A stretch of 64,000 nt of DNA from Candidatus Hadarchaeota archaeon (GCA_964399085.1 CAYNPN010000003.1:7703-71702), one strand, 5' to 3'. Positions 4,836 through 62,128 are shown, counted from the stretch's first letter. The notes: generated by a model from the letters alone, not told the origin. Numbers and translations are program-made.

Positions 4836-5548
4836 CTATTCCTGGTGGAAGAGTTCTATTGATGAAATTATTTCTTCAGTTTTCCCCACCAGTATAACTT
4901 TGTCTCCTTTTTGAAAAACTGTATCTCCTCTCGGGGCGATTAGTTCTTCCTCTCGTCTAATTAGTCCTACAGTGCAAAGTTCGGGTAAGTCTAGGTCTTT
5001 AATGGCTTTCCCTTCAGCTTCGGAATTTTCCGTTACTTCAATTTCTATAACATCGCCGTCTTTTCCTCCATGCTTATCATGCCATAAAGCCCAGAACTGA
5101 CAGCAGCTTTTTCGATTAGTCCCATTGTAGCACTGATTGCACTGACCACAACATCTGCCTCAACATCCTTATACATATTCGCATATTCGTCCTTTTTTAC
5201 CCGAGCAATTACTCGACAGGACGCTGCATCTTTTGCAATCTTACAGACCATCAAATTCGTCTCGTCATTTGAGGTTAATGCAACCAATGACTCGGCTTCT
5301 TCAATCCCCGCTTCTTTTAAGATCTCCCGGTCTGTTCCATCTCCATGAACAACCATGGGTACGTCAAGTTTTTTACGGATCCTATGGGCTCTTTCCTCAT
5401 CTACTTCTATAACGGCAATTTCATGTTTTGTCCACGTCAATCGATCAGCTAGTTCTAAACCCGTCTTTCCTCCTCCAACAATAATTATCTCTTTTGTCGG
5501 AGAAGACACCTTCCCAATCAAAGATTGGGTGGGTGATGAATCCGACAC
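4836..5548 (-). pseudogene. trkA: trkA paralog split by a single-base frameshift near 5068-5070
   Basis: N-domain ORF 5045..5548 (KEIIIVGGGKTG..YGMISM) stops early. The TrkA-C domain continues in another frame to a stop at 4836-4838 (GGKDGDVIEIEVTENSEAEGKAIKDLDLPELCTVGLIRREEELIAPRGDTVFQKGDKVILVG), colinear with the TrkA at 2567-3217. Confidence 0.7.
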
Positions 5549-5876
5549 ATTTTTTTAACTTCAAAGCCGAAAGGTAGTGTAAGAAGGTGTCTTGAGCTGA
5601 CATGCCGAGTCCCGAGGACGGGGCTTCGGGGCACAGGCTCTCTTGAGAATGAATCCTCGGGAGGTTCAAGATAGGACCGTCGTGGCTCGGCCCGCAAGCT
5701 CTCCGTGTCGAATCTCGACCTCTGTACATCAAGTCGGGTTTTAGCGAGTGGGCAACCTGCAAACAAGTCCATCGGTGATGGATATAGACCGCTCGGTAGT
5801 ACCTTAACCCGACCGAAAGGGTGCGAATGGGGCTGGAAGCTCCTTCCAAACCGTGTTTGGTGGGAGAGGAAGTCAC
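5491..5876 (+). ncRNA. Element A: TnpB-less IS200/IS605-type element; candidate stand-alone omega-RNA-like structured RNA
   Basis: Left module GAGAAG..CCTTCC, hairpin cccaatc-aaa-gattggg (5513-5529), then GTGGGTGATGAATCC. Right module GAATGGGGCTGGAAGCTCCTTCC, hairpin ccaaac-cgt-gtttgg (5846-5860), then TGGGAGAGGAAGTCAC. Both modules are homologous to the ends of the tnpB element at 15911-17168. The interior is GC-rich with no convincing ORF. Confidence 0.6.
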
Positions 5877-6027
5877 CTTTGACCCATCTAAATTTTAATA
5901 TTTATCTTTGATCCACATCCCCCCACTTAATTTCCTTATTCTCTCAGAAAGGCAGATTTTCAAGAAGCCAGACAAAGACAAAACCAACTGCCCATGACCC
6001 CCTACAAAACCATGAAAAATGCCGTGA

Positions 6028-12079: not shown

Positions 12080-12170
12080 TGGTGCGGCCGGCGGGATTTG
12101 AACCCGCGTATCGGGCTTTCCACCGGAGTGTTGGAGGGCCCGAGTCTTAGGCCAACTAGACCACGGCCGC
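12080..12170 (-). tRNA. tRNA with a ~14 nt insertion in the anticodon loop (probable intron); anticodon ambiguous (UCC/Gly or CCA/Trp are the candidates)
   Basis: Reverse complement folds as GCGGCCG-TG-GTCT/AGTTGGCCTA/AGAC-T-CGGGC[CCTCCAACACTCCGGTGGAAA]GCCCG-ATAC-GCGGG/TTCAAAT/CCCGC-CGGCCGC-A-CCA. TCCA pairs with TGGA inside the loop, giving a bulge-helix-loop-like structure. Confidence 0.8.
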
Positions 12171-15684: not shown

Positions 15685-15910
15685 GATATCTCGCCTAAAT
15701 TACTTTCTCCTAATTATTAATCTTACATATGCCTTAGTTTTGTCTTTCTAGACAATAATTTTTTTATAAGGCTTCTGGAAGGAATTTAGCTCCCGATTAG
15801 GGTTACGAAAATCTCGCTAGAAAGCCCTCTCTTAAACAATGTGAGAAGTCAGTTAAAACCATCATTCCAAGGAAGTCTAAAGCTCGAAAGTGGGGTAAAA
15901 AATATTTAAC

Positions 15911-17168
15911 TTCTTTGCCGAGAAGTCCCCTTCCTAATCTTTGATTAGGTGGGTGATGAATCGGCATTACTTTTACTCACCTCTCCCGGTAAGCGTCTAA
16001 AGTAATGGGAGGGTGAAATGAAGTGAGGTGAGGTTTGAGAGATGGGTTCAGGATGATGGTTGAAAAGACTATCGTTTGTAGGATTTTGGATCTTACCGTG
16101 AGGAAGGAGGGTCTGCTCGTCAAGGAGTACTCTAACGCTCAGGGATATATCCGTGGGGAGACGGAAGACTTGTATTCCGCTACCAAACAGGCGATGGACA
16201 GGTATGTGGAGAAGGTTCAGAACGAGGAATATCCTTTATTTTTGCGCCATGATACTTTCAAGGTGGAGAGGGCGGAAAACGCGAAAGAGTTTGACTATTG
16301 GGCTAAGATTCCTATTTCTGATGTTTGGGGTGGGGTTTGGGTTCCTATCAATCCCCACCGAGAAATTAGTGAGGATATGGATATTCACGATTCTAAAATC
16401 GTCTGGAAGGAATACGGTTTCGAACTTCACTTGTCCGTATCTTTTGAAGTATCGTCTCAAACTCCCGAATCTATCCTCTCCGTGGATTTGGGTGAAAGGG
16501 TGATGGCGACGACCGTGTCGTCCGCCGATAACGGGACCCCGGAATTCCACGGGAGAAAAGTTCGGGGGATTAGAAGGCACTACGCTTGGCTCCGAAAGAG
16601 GCTGCAGGAGAAAGGTCTAGCTAAGAAGGTTGAAGAGATCTCGGATAATGAAAAGCGGAAAGTCGAGGATATTCTACATGAGATTTCGAGGAATATAGTT
16701 GATAGAGCCGGAGAAAACAGTTCTCTAATCGTTATCGGCGATTTGAAGGGGGTGGGAAACGAGGATATGGGGAAAGGAGAGCGTATGAACCGAATAGCGA
16801 ACTCTATACCCTACTGGAAGCTGACGAGGATGATAGAATATAAGGCGAAAGAAGAAGGATTGCAGGTCGTGAAGATAAACGAGAGAAACACTTCCAAGAC
16901 CTGTCACAAGTGTGGAAGTGAAAATACTTCGAGACCGACTCAGGGAAAGTTCACCTGTAACACCTGTGGTCTCGAAGACTATAATGCTGACCTGAACGGA
17001 GCCAAGAACATTTTGCAGAGGTTTCTCGCCTATATGGTGGGGAATGGGGCTTTCGTGAACAAGCCCATAACCAAGGTGTATAGCGAAAAACACAAAGTGG
17101 AGAACCTAGAAAAATTCCTTGGAAGCTCCCTCCTAACGAGTGGAACAAGTTAGGTGGGTGCAGTTCAC
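15911..17168 (+). mobile_element. IS200/IS605-family element carrying tnpB only (IS1341-like organisation, no tnpA)
   Basis: Left hairpin cctaatc-ttt-gattagg (15933-15949) followed by GTGGGTGATGAATC. Right hairpin cctaac-N11-gttagg (17132-17154, overlapping the tnpB stop) followed by TGGGTGCAGTTCAC. The left and right hairpins resemble each other. Confidence 0.75.
16053..17153 (+). CDS. tnpB: TnpB (OrfB) RNA-guided nuclease homolog with a non-canonical RuvC-II motif
   Basis: RuvC-I SVDLGERV; zinc finger CHKCG..CNTCG; RuvC-III YNADLNGAKNI. The RuvC-II position reads IVIGDLKG (Gly codon 16737-16739) where the family normally has xxEDL. ATG taken at 16053 (the track starts at a TTG at 16035). 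Confidence 0.85.
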   Translation: MMVEKTIVCRILDLTVRKEGLLVKEYSNAQGYIRGETEDLYSATKQAMDRYVEKVQNEEYPLFLRHDTFKVERAENAKEFDYWAKIPISDVWGGVWVPINPHREISEDMDIHDSKIVWKEYGFELHLSVSFEVSSQTPESILSVDLGERVMATTVSSADNGTPEFHGRKVRGIRRHYAWLRKRLQEKGLAKKVEEISDNEKRKVEDILHEISRNIVDRAGENSSLIVIGDLKGVGNEDMGKGERMNRIANSIPYWKLTRMIEYKAKEEGLQVVKINERNTSKTCHKCGSENTSRPTQGKFTCNTCGLEDYNADLNGAKNILQRFLAYMVGNGAFVNKPITKVYSEKHKVENLEKFLGSSLLTSGTS

Positions 17169-17262
17169 TGGAAGATTCTTGAGTTAATCAGAGTTTCTTC
17201 GCTTTTTATGTCAATTCGACCGGGATTGAGCAAAACCTTTTACGTATAGGACATCTACTAGT

Positions 17263-17290: not shown

Positions 17291-17944
17291 ATGACAAATC
17301 ATGATACAAATAAGAGAGAGGAACTGATCGATGCGGCCGAAAAGCTGTTCTCCAAGAACGGATATCCAAAAACATCCGTGGATGATATCTGTAACGAAGT
17401 CGGTGTGGCTCATGGTCTTTTCTATCATTATTTTGATTCCAAAAAAGACGTGATCGGAGCTATAACCGAGAAAATGATGGGCGGATTGGAGTCCAACCTT
17501 GAGGAAATGGTGAAAGATACGGAGATGGGAGCGGAGGAAAAATTCCGGAGATTTCATAGTCTTTCTCTTCAAAAGAAGAAAAAAAGACCTTACCTGGCCT
17601 CGTCCTTTTCCAAAAAAAGATCTCCTAGGGTGTACTACAATTTATTCAATAAAATGGTTGAGGTGATTACTCCATATCTGACCGAGATAGTCAAACAGGG
17701 TATAGATGAAGGTATGTTCCATACTGAATATCCCGAACAGGCTGTAAGGTTCTGGCTCAACGGGAGACTCTTCCTAACGGGTGAGGATCAGTTGTTCCGA
17801 GAGGGAATCCTTGAGGATATGAAAGCAGAAGCCTTCATGGTCGAACGTTTGCTGGGCGCTGAAAGAGGATTTTTGACCTCTTTTTACGAGGAGAGGGAGG
17901 AAGAGATAAAGGCATTTCTCGAAGAGGCCAGGGGGGGTGATTAG
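17291..17944 (+). CDS. TetR/AcrR-family transcriptional regulator
   Basis: N-terminal HTH: REELIDAAEKLFSKNGYPKTSVDDICNEVGVAHGLFYHYFDSKKDV. Confidence 0.85.
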   Translation: MTNHDTNKREELIDAAEKLFSKNGYPKTSVDDICNEVGVAHGLFYHYFDSKKDVIGAITEKMMGGLESNLEEMVKDTEMGAEEKFRRFHSLSLQKKKKRPYLASSFSKKRSPRVYYNLFNKMVEVITPYLTEIVKQGIDEGMFHTEYPEQAVRFWLNGRLFLTGEDQLFREGILEDMKAEAFMVERLLGAERGFLTSFYEEREEEIKAFLEEARGGD

Positions 17945-17945
17945 C

Positions 17946-18845
17946 ATGGATAGTGAACCCTTAATGAAGATAAGGAATCTCACAAAGATGTACGGAGATG
18001 TAGTAGGCATCAAGGATTTAGACCTGGACGTATTCCAGGGAGAAATCATGGGATTTCTTGGCCCCAACGGGGCCGGTAAAACTACGACGATAAGGACATG
18101 CCTCGGCCTACTTCAGAAGACAAGCGGTTCGGTGGAAATATTCGGCTTAGATTCACACAGAGACTCAATTGAGATACGGAGAAGGACTGGATACTTGCCG
18201 GGAGACTTTGGCATGTATTCCGACTTGAAAGTAGAGACCATACTCAGATACCTATTGTCGCAAAGTGATGTGTCCGACGAGAGTAGGATGGAGGAACTGT
18301 CCGAACGATTGGAGCTTAATCTGGATAGAAAGTATGGTGATCTCTCGGGAGGAAACAAACAGAAGGTCGGCATTGTGCAGGCCTTCATGGCAGATCAAGA
18401 CCTGGTGATACTGGATGAGCCCACGTCTGGGTTGGACCCGTTGATGCAGCAGGAGTTTAACAAATTTCTGAGAGAGGAGAGGGATAAAGGCAAAACGATA
18501 TTCATGTCATCGCACATTCTGACAGAGGTAGAAGAAGTATGTGATCGGGTCGCCATAATAAGGAACGGTCGTCTACAAGTCGTCGAGGATATTGACTCGC
18601 TTAAGGATAAGATGGGTAAAAAGCTAACCGTCGAATTTGAGGAAGTTTTGGACCAAGATATATTCAATATCGAGGGTGTGGAAGACGTTCAAATGGAAGG
18701 TAAGAGGGCGACTATGATAGTGATTAGCAATCTCAATGAAGTGATTAAAAAAGTGTCAAAATACGATGTCGTCAACATGTCTCTTGAAACTTTCAGTTTG
18801 GAGGAACTATTCCTGACTTACTATTCCCGTGGAGGCAACGGGTGA
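17946..18845 (+). CDS. ABC transporter ATP-binding protein (ABC-2/DrrA-like)
   Basis: Walker A GPNGAGKTT, signature LSGGNKQKV, Walker B LVILDEPTSGLD, H-loop SSHIL. Confidence 0.9.
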   Translation: MDSEPLMKIRNLTKMYGDVVGIKDLDLDVFQGEIMGFLGPNGAGKTTTIRTCLGLLQKTSGSVEIFGLDSHRDSIEIRRRTGYLPGDFGMYSDLKVETILRYLLSQSDVSDESRMEELSERLELNLDRKYGDLSGGNKQKVGIVQAFMADQDLVILDEPTSGLDPLMQQEFNKFLREERDKGKTIFMSSHILTEVEEVCDRVAIIRNGRLQVVEDIDSLKDKMGKKLTVEFEEVLDQDIFNIEGVEDVQMEGKRATMIVISNLNEVIKKVSKYDVVNMSLETFSLEELFLTYYSRGGNG

Positions 18846-31829: not shown

Positions 31830-31927
31830 TGGTGCGGGGAGAGGGATTTGAACCCTCGACAACCGCATCTTCAGTGCGGCGCTTTTGGGCCAGGTTTATC
31901 CTGGGCTCCCAGCTGAGCTATCCCCGC
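31830..31927 (-). tRNA. tRNA-Phe (GAA) with a 22 nt non-canonical intron in the D-arm (after position 22)
   Basis: Reverse complement: GCGGGGA-TA-GCTC-AGCTGGGA-G[CCCAGGATAAACCTGGCCCAAA]AGC-G-CCGCA-CTGAAGA-TGCGG-TTGTC-GAGGG-TTCAAAT-CCCTC-TCCCCGC-A-CCA. Removing the bracketed 22 nt restores a canonical 76 nt cloverleaf. Confidence 0.85.
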
Positions 31928-50481: not shown

Positions 50482-50897
50482 TCTTTTGTATCCGGGGAAG
50501 CCACCTTCCCAATCGTGGATTGGATGGGTGATGAATCCGATATGTTTTAATTGCTCGGGCGAGAGAATGGGAATAACTGGTTCACGGCATGTCTGAAACG
50601 GGACCTCGTTCGAGTCCCCGAAGCCGAGTTCGGGGGCGTCAGGACCTCGGGGACTGGATCCCTCGTGGACTGTGAATGAGGGCACCAGTGGCAGTGCCCC
50701 GAACTCCATAGCTACGACCCGTCCTCCGGATACTCGCCTATGGCGGGAGACAAGTCGGTGAGCGGAGGAGGACCGTCAATAATGGCTATGAAGAGTCGGT
50801 GGCTCTTCACGCCACTTCCACCGGTAACACCTCGACCTCGGACTGGAAGGGTGTGAATGGGTGGAAGCTCCGTCCTTCAGGTCGGAGAGGATATCAC
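50482..50897 (+). ncRNA. Element C: TnpB-less IS200/IS605-type element; candidate stand-alone omega-RNA-like structured RNA
   Basis: GGGGAAGCCACCTTCC, hairpin cccaatc-gtg-gattgga (50508-50524), then TGGGTGATGAATCC. At the 3' end, GTGTGAATGGGTGGAAGCTCCGTCC, a variant hairpin ctccg..cggag, then AGAGGATATCAC. GC-rich interior with stems, e.g. tccccgaa/ttcggggg (50615-50636) and ggcac/gtgcc (50681-50698). Confidence 0.6.
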
Positions 50898-61730: not shown

Positions 61731-62128
61731 CTTTTTATCGAGAAGTCTCCTTCCCAATTTTGATCGGGTAGGTGATGAATCGATACTTTTTTTGTTGATA
61801 ATGGATATTTTGGAAGGTAGAGAGGTTCCGAGTCTATATGCCGAGTTCGAACAGCCGAGTGTTCGAGCGTCAGGCTCTTCCGCAATAGATACGTGGGAGG
61901 GTTCGGAACGGGGTTCCAGTGACCGAACCCATAACTCGGGCGGAAGATAGTTACGGACAGATAGTAGTGGATGTCCCGAAAAGCAGTGCAAGTCCCGGGA
62001 ACCTGCAAGGAGTGGCGAACCGTGTTCGCCTGAGAGACCGCCGTGTAGCGGGGCACTAATCTCGGATGTCGGTCTCGTGAATGGGTGGAAGCACCTTCCA
62101 AATGAAATTTGGTGGGTGAGGAGGTCAC
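61731..62128 (+). ncRNA. Element D: TnpB-less IS200/IS605-type element; candidate stand-alone omega-RNA-like structured RNA
   Basis: GAGAAGTCTCCTTCC, hairpin cccaat-tttg-atcggg, then TAGGTGATGAATCG. At the 3' end, GTGAATGGGTGGAAGCACCTTCC, hairpin ccaaat-gaa-atttgg, then TGGGTGAGGAGGTCAC. Interior stem ttcgaac/gttcgag (61856-61877). Confidence 0.6.

Follow-up and report, generated by a model that had tools for sequence, protein, structure and literature searches.

When glycine stands at the position of the RuvC-II glutamate in a TnpB protein, has the protein lost its nuclease, or is the catalytic residue supplied from elsewhere? This question is raised by a gene in a 64,000-nucleotide stretch of DNA from Candidatus Hadarchaeota archaeon (GCA_964399085.1 CAYNPN010000003.1:7703-71702), which we refer to as the window and in which positions are counted from the first letter. 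An earlier sequence-only reading of the window described a tnpB-only IS200/IS605 element at 15911 to 17168 with Gly at the RuvC-II glutamate position of its TnpB, and offered two options: a catalytic Glu contributed from a relocated position or a nuclease-impaired regulator. We find that 15911 to 17168 is very probably a non-autonomous, tnpB-only insertion sequence (IS) of the IS200/IS605 type, whose TnpB belongs by sequence to the RIIr-5/TnpB2 branch and is predicted to be an active RNA-guided DNA endonuclease. The protein is predicted to be active because a Glu on strand beta-5 completes the catalytic triad in this branch.

The TnpB protein and its RuvC-II glycine

The tnpB open reading frame (ORF) lies on the + strand, as do all other features of the element described below. 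Its longest form opens with TTG at 16035 (372 amino acids), but the likely start is ATG at 16053, since the start of 113 of the 121 homologs falls at the corresponding MMVEKT position; this gives a protein of 366 amino acids encoded by 16053 to 17153. Residue numbers counted from the TTG and from the ATG differ by 6 (D151/D145, G235/G229, E283/E277, and D319/D313). The protein is full-length, with no C-terminal truncation, and it scores 161 bits against a cutoff of 100 with NF040570 (guided_TnpB, the RNA-guided endonuclease TnpB family of NCBIfam) and 76.2 bits against a cutoff of 26.3 with PF07282 of Pfam (Cas12f1-like_TNB). Among solved structures, the closest in sequence are those of Cas12f proteins, TnpB, and mimivirus Fanzor2, and close TnpB relatives occur in MSBL1 single-cell genomes, in a Hadarchaeota metagenome-assembled genome, and in Methanohalarchaeum. 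An AlphaFold2 (AF2) model built from 53 homologs (predicted local distance difference test [pLDDT], 81.8; predicted TM-score [pTM], 0.75) has the WED/REC, RuvC, and zinc-finger fold of solved TnpB and Cas12f structures. In Foldseek searches with this model, the top matches were AsCas12f (E = 1e-16; TM-score, 0.65), ISDra2 TnpB (8H1J; E = 6e-10), and ApmFanzor2 (9B0L; E = 1.5e-9).

The four motifs quoted in the sequence-only reading (SVDLGERV, SLIVIGDLKG, CHKCG...CNTCG, and NADLNGAKNI) are all present in the ORF. The RuvC-I Asp (16485 to 16487; D151/D145) is found in 121/121 homologs and is encoded by GAT in all 5 copies of the element in this genome. Each Cys of the C4 zinc finger (C290, C293, C308, and C311; 16902 to 16967) is found in 120/121 homologs, as is the RuvC-III Asp (16989 to 16991; D319/D313). 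The latter lies in the motif NADLN, which is the NADXN form of RuvC-III typical of "derived" TnpB clades (PMC10691335).

The residue that stands out is G235/G229 (codon 16737 to 16739), at the end of strand beta-4. In the phmmer/HMMER alignment to OsCas12f (9nzq), "slivigdlkgv" lies on "gtiqmedltgi," which places G235 on the RuvC-II Glu, so that the registration of the motif in the sequence-only reading was right. Could the codon have arisen from an error of sequencing or assembly, or from a point mutation private to this copy? Gly occurs in each of the five paralogs of this genome, under either of two codons (GGC or GGT), and in 120 of 121 homologs from many archaeal phyla, down to ~45% identity. 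This refutes the error explanation, to which we give practically no credence. Based on these alignments, we conclude that the Gly is a trait of the family and not a lesion, and that it is no sign of a dead enzyme.

A glutamate 48 residues downstream

The predicted relocated catalytic Glu is E283/E277 (codon 16881 to 16883), in the motif INERNTS, 48 residues after G235 and before the zinc finger. It is present in 119/121 homologs. E283 aligns in Cas12f with the Pro from the classical "V-x-P-x-x-T-S" motif. In the AF2 model (numbered from the ATG), G229 ends beta-4 (residues 224 to 230), and E277 directly follows beta-5 (residues 272 to 276). At 62 genomic loci compared at the four positions (RuvC-I, RuvC-II, beta-5, and RuvC-III), 44 archaeal proteins read D-G-E-D, and five canonical relatives from Lachnospiraceae read D-E-P-(D).

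The two positions vary reciprocally over a much wider range of proteins. When 1.84 billion cluster representatives (50% identity) were scanned with HMMER, 8,004 relatives were obtained at E <= 0.001, from which the best 150 were used; 129 of these were informative. Among these 129, 96 have Gly together with the downstream Glu, 31 have the canonical Glu together with Pro, Ala, Ser, Asn, or Thr at the downstream position, and 2 have Arg or Cys together with the downstream Glu. Mixed states were found in none of the 129 (no Gly without the downstream Glu and no double Glu). The reciprocity has a Fisher p of 3e-30, a value that ignores phylogeny and shared ancestry. Even so, it is telling that in these alignments many deep clusters contain no mixed state.

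The sole homolog with Glu (GAA) at the canonical position, P0010 (locus L003, 3665 to 3691), keeps the relocated Glu as well and reads "D-E-E-D." Its ORF is N-terminally truncated (263 amino acids), and the change is therefore probably neutral in a decaying copy and not an evolutionary intermediate.

Probable membership in the RIIr-5/TnpB2 branch

The rearrangement described above has already been published. Altae-Tran et al. (2023, PNAS) defined the RIIr-5 clade, in which Glu is changed to Gly and, as in RuvX, beta-5 supplies a Glu that offsets the change (PMC10691335), and Jiang et al. (2023, Sci Adv) described TnpB2/pro-Fanzor proteins with an alternative Glu ~45 residues away (PMC10530073). 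The latter study reported that the archaeal TvTnpB of Thermoplasma volcanium performs TAM (target-adjacent motif)-dependent DNA cleavage without collateral activity and that the E467A variant of ApmFNuc is inactive (PMC10530073). The triad of ApmFz2, as resolved by cryo-electron microscopy (cryo-EM), consists of D324, E467, and D501, the Glu being "shifted 50 residues" (PMC11832414). Convergence of the alternative Glu on the RuvC Asp pair has been seen in AF2 models of clade members (PMC10691335 and PMC10530073) and by cryo-EM in Fanzor2 (PMC11832414).

The window protein shares the features that mark this branch: Gly is found clade-wide at RuvC-II, a Glu lies 48 residues downstream just after beta-5, and the Asp pair and the C4 finger are kept. 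Judged by these sequence features, the window TnpB is a member of the RIIr-5/TnpB2 branch, with the predicted catalytic triad D151/E283/D319, in which E283 would converge on the Asp pair. Of the two options in the sequence-only reading, it is thus the relocated Glu that is supported, by the near-universal presence of that residue among homologs, by the reciprocal pattern, and by the published RIIr-5/TnpB2 proteins (PMC10691335, PMC10530073, and PMC11832414). The same reading had named a GDL variant common in active archaeal TnpBs as a result that would speak against it, and the variant is indeed common: nearly all homologs have the Gly, and TvTnpB, an archaeal protein with the rearrangement, cleaves DNA.

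In common with RIIr-5/TnpB2 proteins, exemplified by TvTnpB, the window protein has Gly in RuvC-II and a Glu ~45 to 50 residues downstream on beta-5 before the zinc finger, has intact RuvC-I and RuvC-III Asp residues and C4 zinc finger, is of a size within 340 to 400 amino acids, and has an IS200/IS605 context and an archaeal distribution. It is only distantly related to TvTnpB in sequence, the likeness to TvTnpB being drawn from its published description. The two also differ in their TAMs (predicted TTAAC here and NTGAC for TvTnpB) and in that the window element has no tnpA, whereas TvTnpB lies within an IS605 element with TnpA.

The triad architecture is also that of mimivirus Fanzor2 (PDB 9B0L), with a shift of 48 residues here versus 50 and a spacing from the Glu to the RuvC-III Asp of 36 here versus 34. 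The sequence match to Fanzor2 with the family profile has E = 1e-11, and the structural match has a TM-score of 0.51 (query) or 0.41 (target) with E = 1.5e-9. In contrast with the window protein, Fanzor2 of Acanthamoeba polyphaga mimivirus comes from a eukaryotic giant virus, has a structured N-terminal extension and a nuclear localization signal, and has another TAM and other transposon partners. Canonical TnpB (ISDra2; 8H1J/8EXA) and Cas12f (AsCas12f, 8J12; OsCas12f, 9NZQ) share the fold of the window protein (Foldseek E = 1e-16 to 6e-10), its domain order, its zinc finger (TNB domain), and a 3'-encoded omega-RNA with a guide taken from the flank, which for the window element is a prediction. 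They differ in having the catalytic Glu on beta-4 and Pro at beta-5 (vvkinPrhTS), where the window protein has Gly and Glu (vvkinErnTS), respectively.

It follows for annotation that Gly at RuvC-II should not be read as inactivation where the beta-5 Glu (xxNExxTS) is present. The window protein adds to the RIIr-5/TnpB2 branch a member from a halophile or brine archaeon with a predicted TTAAC TAM. The branch is of some practical interest, in that characterized members lack collateral cleavage of single-stranded DNA (PMC10530073).

Extent, ends, and target site of the element

The assembly contains five full copies of the element, one in the window (15911 to 17168; 1,258 bp) and one on each of contigs C26, C2, C12, and C76, with 85 to 87% nucleotide identity and unrelated flanks. 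The five copies cease to be similar precisely past TTAAC on their left side and past ...AGTTCAC (at 17168) on their right side, which shows that the boundaries given in the sequence-only reading are correct to the base. The contexts of the five copies are unrelated, and there is no conserved partner gene.

The penta-nucleotide TTAAC (15906 to 15910) abuts the left end and is found there in all five full copies and at locus L001; it is the target site and the predicted TAM. Genome-wide, TTAAC or TTATC lies directly 5' of 79 of 83 left-end copies, and the subfamily of the window copy uses TTAAC. Just inside the left end is an imperfect hairpin (15926 to 15953) with the core CCTAATC-TTT-GATTAGG (15933 to 15949), followed by TGGGTGATGAATC. 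As DNA it folds with -11.3 kcal/mol (z = -4.8), no shuffled sequence out of 200 folds as well, and it is kept in about 83 to 100 genomic copies. A look-alike hairpin (CTCCC-T-CCTAAC...GTTAGG-T-GGG-TG) is located just inside the right end (17125 to 17161), and TGGGTG follows the imperfect hairpin at both ends of the element. The terminal TTCAC (17164 to 17168), as part of the ...AGTTCAC common to all copies with divergence directly after it, marks the right cleavage site. The element thus carries a subterminal hairpin at either end, is without terminal inverted repeats, and is inserted 3' of a specific penta-nucleotide. This anatomy is of the IS200/IS605 type, and the element looks mobile.

The target motif covaries with a base inside the left end: ends with GAGAAGTC follow TTAAC (28/83), and ends with GAGAAGAC follow TTATC (51/83). 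The pattern resembles the base-pairing "guide" rule that the TnpA of IS200/IS605 elements follows in reading its cleavage site.

Two further tnpB subfamilies are present in the genome, at ~45% and ~34% identity, and in the ~45% subfamily Gly and Glu are arranged as in the window protein (LIVVGNLEG ... MNEHYTS; C1:87702-88688).

Is the element still functional?

Several observations weigh against an element that is both mobile and functional, apart from the shared ancestry that the Fisher test ignores. The score with PF01385 (OrfB_IS605) is below its cutoff (21.7 versus 30.5 bits). Three of the five copies are broken: those on C26 (8584 to 9844) and C2 (37874 to 39139) both stop prematurely at codon 92, and that on C76 (1219 to 2478) is frameshifted near codons 6 to 16. 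A Y1 TnpA (PF01797) was not found in the assembly, which is 87% complete and consists of 134 contigs. Y1 transposases are present in 6 of 30 relatives, but no TnpA with the ends of this element was found in the four best loci; 2 of these four adjoin only distant TnpBs (27 to 30% identity), and the one TnpA seen in a genome of the same genus is part of another element. The failure to find TnpA in the assembly or linked to this element in the same genus weakens the claim of current mobility, and because none has been found in the assembly or with matching ends in relatives, we regard the element as non-autonomous. A Y1 HUH transposase gene does adjoin the tnpB of family members at two loci, L015 and L038. 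We also searched 30 relatives for an empty site, using the joined flanks of the element; the only matches were this genome's own two flanks.

These observations raise the possibility that the window copy is a stranded relic, from a family of active nucleases but no longer transposed for want of a cognate TnpA, with a gene that is decaying or unexpressed. The missing Y1 transposase, both in the assembly and in linkage with this type of element in same-genus genomes, is what such a relic would show, as are the stops or frameshift in the majority of copies and the 13 to 15% divergence among copies, with no recent burst evident. However, the window copy and that on C12 are intact, being full-length with all catalytic residues; they are the only two that are. 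The ratio of nonsynonymous to synonymous substitution rates (dN/dS) between paralogs is 0.11 to 0.21, which demonstrates long-term purifying selection on tnpB. In addition, since the assembly is incomplete and breaks at these repeats, a copy of TnpA could be missing from it. We therefore consider a stranded relic unlikely, and an IS that encodes a predicted active nuclease remains the better account of the locus.

The predicted omega-RNA and a proposed mechanism

A putative omega-RNA (right-end element RNA [reRNA]) scaffold extends from 17021 to 17168, overlapping the 3' end of tnpB; of its four helices, the right-end hairpin is the last. RNAalifold analysis of 9 related copies gave 34 pairs, 6 of them with compensatory changes, and only 5 nonstandard cells. 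The tail of the encoded protein (residues 330 to 366) is disordered in the model (pLDDT < 50). The 3' structure and the disordered tail together fit an omega-RNA scaffold that would be guided by the flank starting at 17169. As predicted from TnpB/omega-RNA architecture, the guide segment is flanking DNA (17169 to 17188) of an assumed length of ~16 to 20 nucleotides (nt), and these flanks differ between copies.

A gene for a TetR-family regulator (17291 to 17944) starts 122 bp downstream of the right end of the element and is followed by a gene for an ABC-transporter ATPase (17937 to 18845). Because the right end is this close upstream of the TetR gene, the predicted guide segment is promoter-proximal DNA of the TetR/ABC operon.

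In the mechanism that we propose, transcription across the 3' end of tnpB and the right end (about 17021 to 17168) would yield an omega-RNA that carries the downstream flank as its guide. TnpB with this RNA would recognize TTAAC, the target site of TnpA acting as a TAM, and then the guide match, a combination that would exist only at the emptied donor site. TnpB would cleave the emptied donor site, and the element would then be restored by repair from the sister copy.

Rfam has no family for the element or for the gene-less modules described below; at gathering score the window gives only three tRNAs, and the region from 5450 to 5950 gives only chance-level matches (E about 4).

At the other end of the gene, the sequence-only reading had called the 5' leader (15961 to 16035) strongly self-complementary. 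The complementary words are indeed present, but the leader as a special structure was rejected as unsupported: the fold of 15955 to 16060 is not exceptional (z = -1.17; 28 of 200 shuffled sequences fold equally well), and across 25 left-end copies and subfamilies of this genome there is no consensus structure, the sequence alone being shared.

Gene-less modules and the regulator alternative

Three intergenic modules without genes are present in the window (5485 to 5876, about 50482 to 50897, and about 61731 to 62128). They are 390 to 440 bp long and mutually homologous; in each, a GC-rich and putatively structured interior is enclosed by a left end and a right end of the module's own, the right end reading ...TGGAAGCTCCTTCC-hairpin-GGTGGGAGAGGAnGTCAC. 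The modules are inserted after TTATC or TTAAC, and their right ends finish with GTCAC or ATCAC. Four more copies of the first module (5485 to 5876), full or partial and nearly identical to it, are found elsewhere in the genome. Such left ends number ~83 to 100 genome-wide, and many lie at contig ends, where the assembly breaks at these repeats. Based on their own ends, their TTATC/TTAAC sites, and their membership in this repeat family, we regard the modules as transposable relatives of the element, similar to palindrome-associated transposable elements (PATEs) or miniature inverted-repeat transposable elements (MITEs). An origin of the modules by deletion from the second tnpB subfamily was considered and rejected, since the left end alone matches. 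Minimal PATE-like derivatives of roughly 110 to 150 bp also occur (C37:15292, C16:29935, C44:9309, C59:6859, and C6:50968); in these, the left end is followed within ~50 to 60 nt by the right-end hairpin region (…GGAAGCCTCTTCCTAAC…).

The modules bear on the second option of the sequence-only reading, according to which the window TnpB would be a nuclease-impaired, exapted derivative, an RNA-guided regulator of the TldR type, with the three modules supplying guides directed at promoters. Gly at the canonical RuvC-II Glu position is a feature that the window protein shares with TldRs and other exapted, inactivated TnpBs, which lack the canonical RuvC-II Glu; modules without genes that have similar ends and a putatively structured interior do occur in intergenic regions; and there is no TnpA in the assembly. 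However, TldRs have lost further catalytic residues and/or the C-terminal region with RuvC-III and the zinc finger, while the window protein keeps both RuvC Asp residues and the zinc finger and has no truncation at its C terminus. The canonical Glu is also compensated for in 119/121 homologs, in perfect alternation with the canonical residue. TldRs are without flanking transposon ends and are fixed beside a partner gene, while the window gene lies between transposon ends and is found in five unrelated contexts. The modules themselves, which the sequence-only reading described as guide-RNA-like and located in promoter regions, are instead transposable elements of the ~83-to-100-copy left-end family, many of them at contig ends. 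Finally, proteins with the same rearrangement are experimentally active (PMC10530073 and PMC11832414). A TldR-like regulator is therefore very improbable, and we retain the reading of the locus as an IS with a TnpB that is predicted to cleave DNA.

The modules are nonetheless candidate carriers of orphan omega-RNAs. One speculative idea is that purifying selection maintains the rearranged TnpB, despite the lack of any TnpA in the genome, for its service to many RNAs, in that the dozens of such modules in the genome would supply omega-RNA-like guides in trans and so form a distributed "orphan guide" network. We regard this as a long shot; if it were true, a handful of TnpB genes would serve the retention of many noncoding elements or the regulation of adjoining host genes. 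The tnpB element itself has little significance beyond annotation, and the genome-wide swarm of its gene-less relatives is the more interesting neighboring, though separate, topic.

Over-long tRNA genes in the window

Two tRNA genes in the window are over-long, at 31833 to 31927 and at 12083 to 12170, both on the - strand. In the Rfam alignment, the D-arm region of the former carries 25 additional nt, possibly an archaeal tRNA intron at a noncanonical position.

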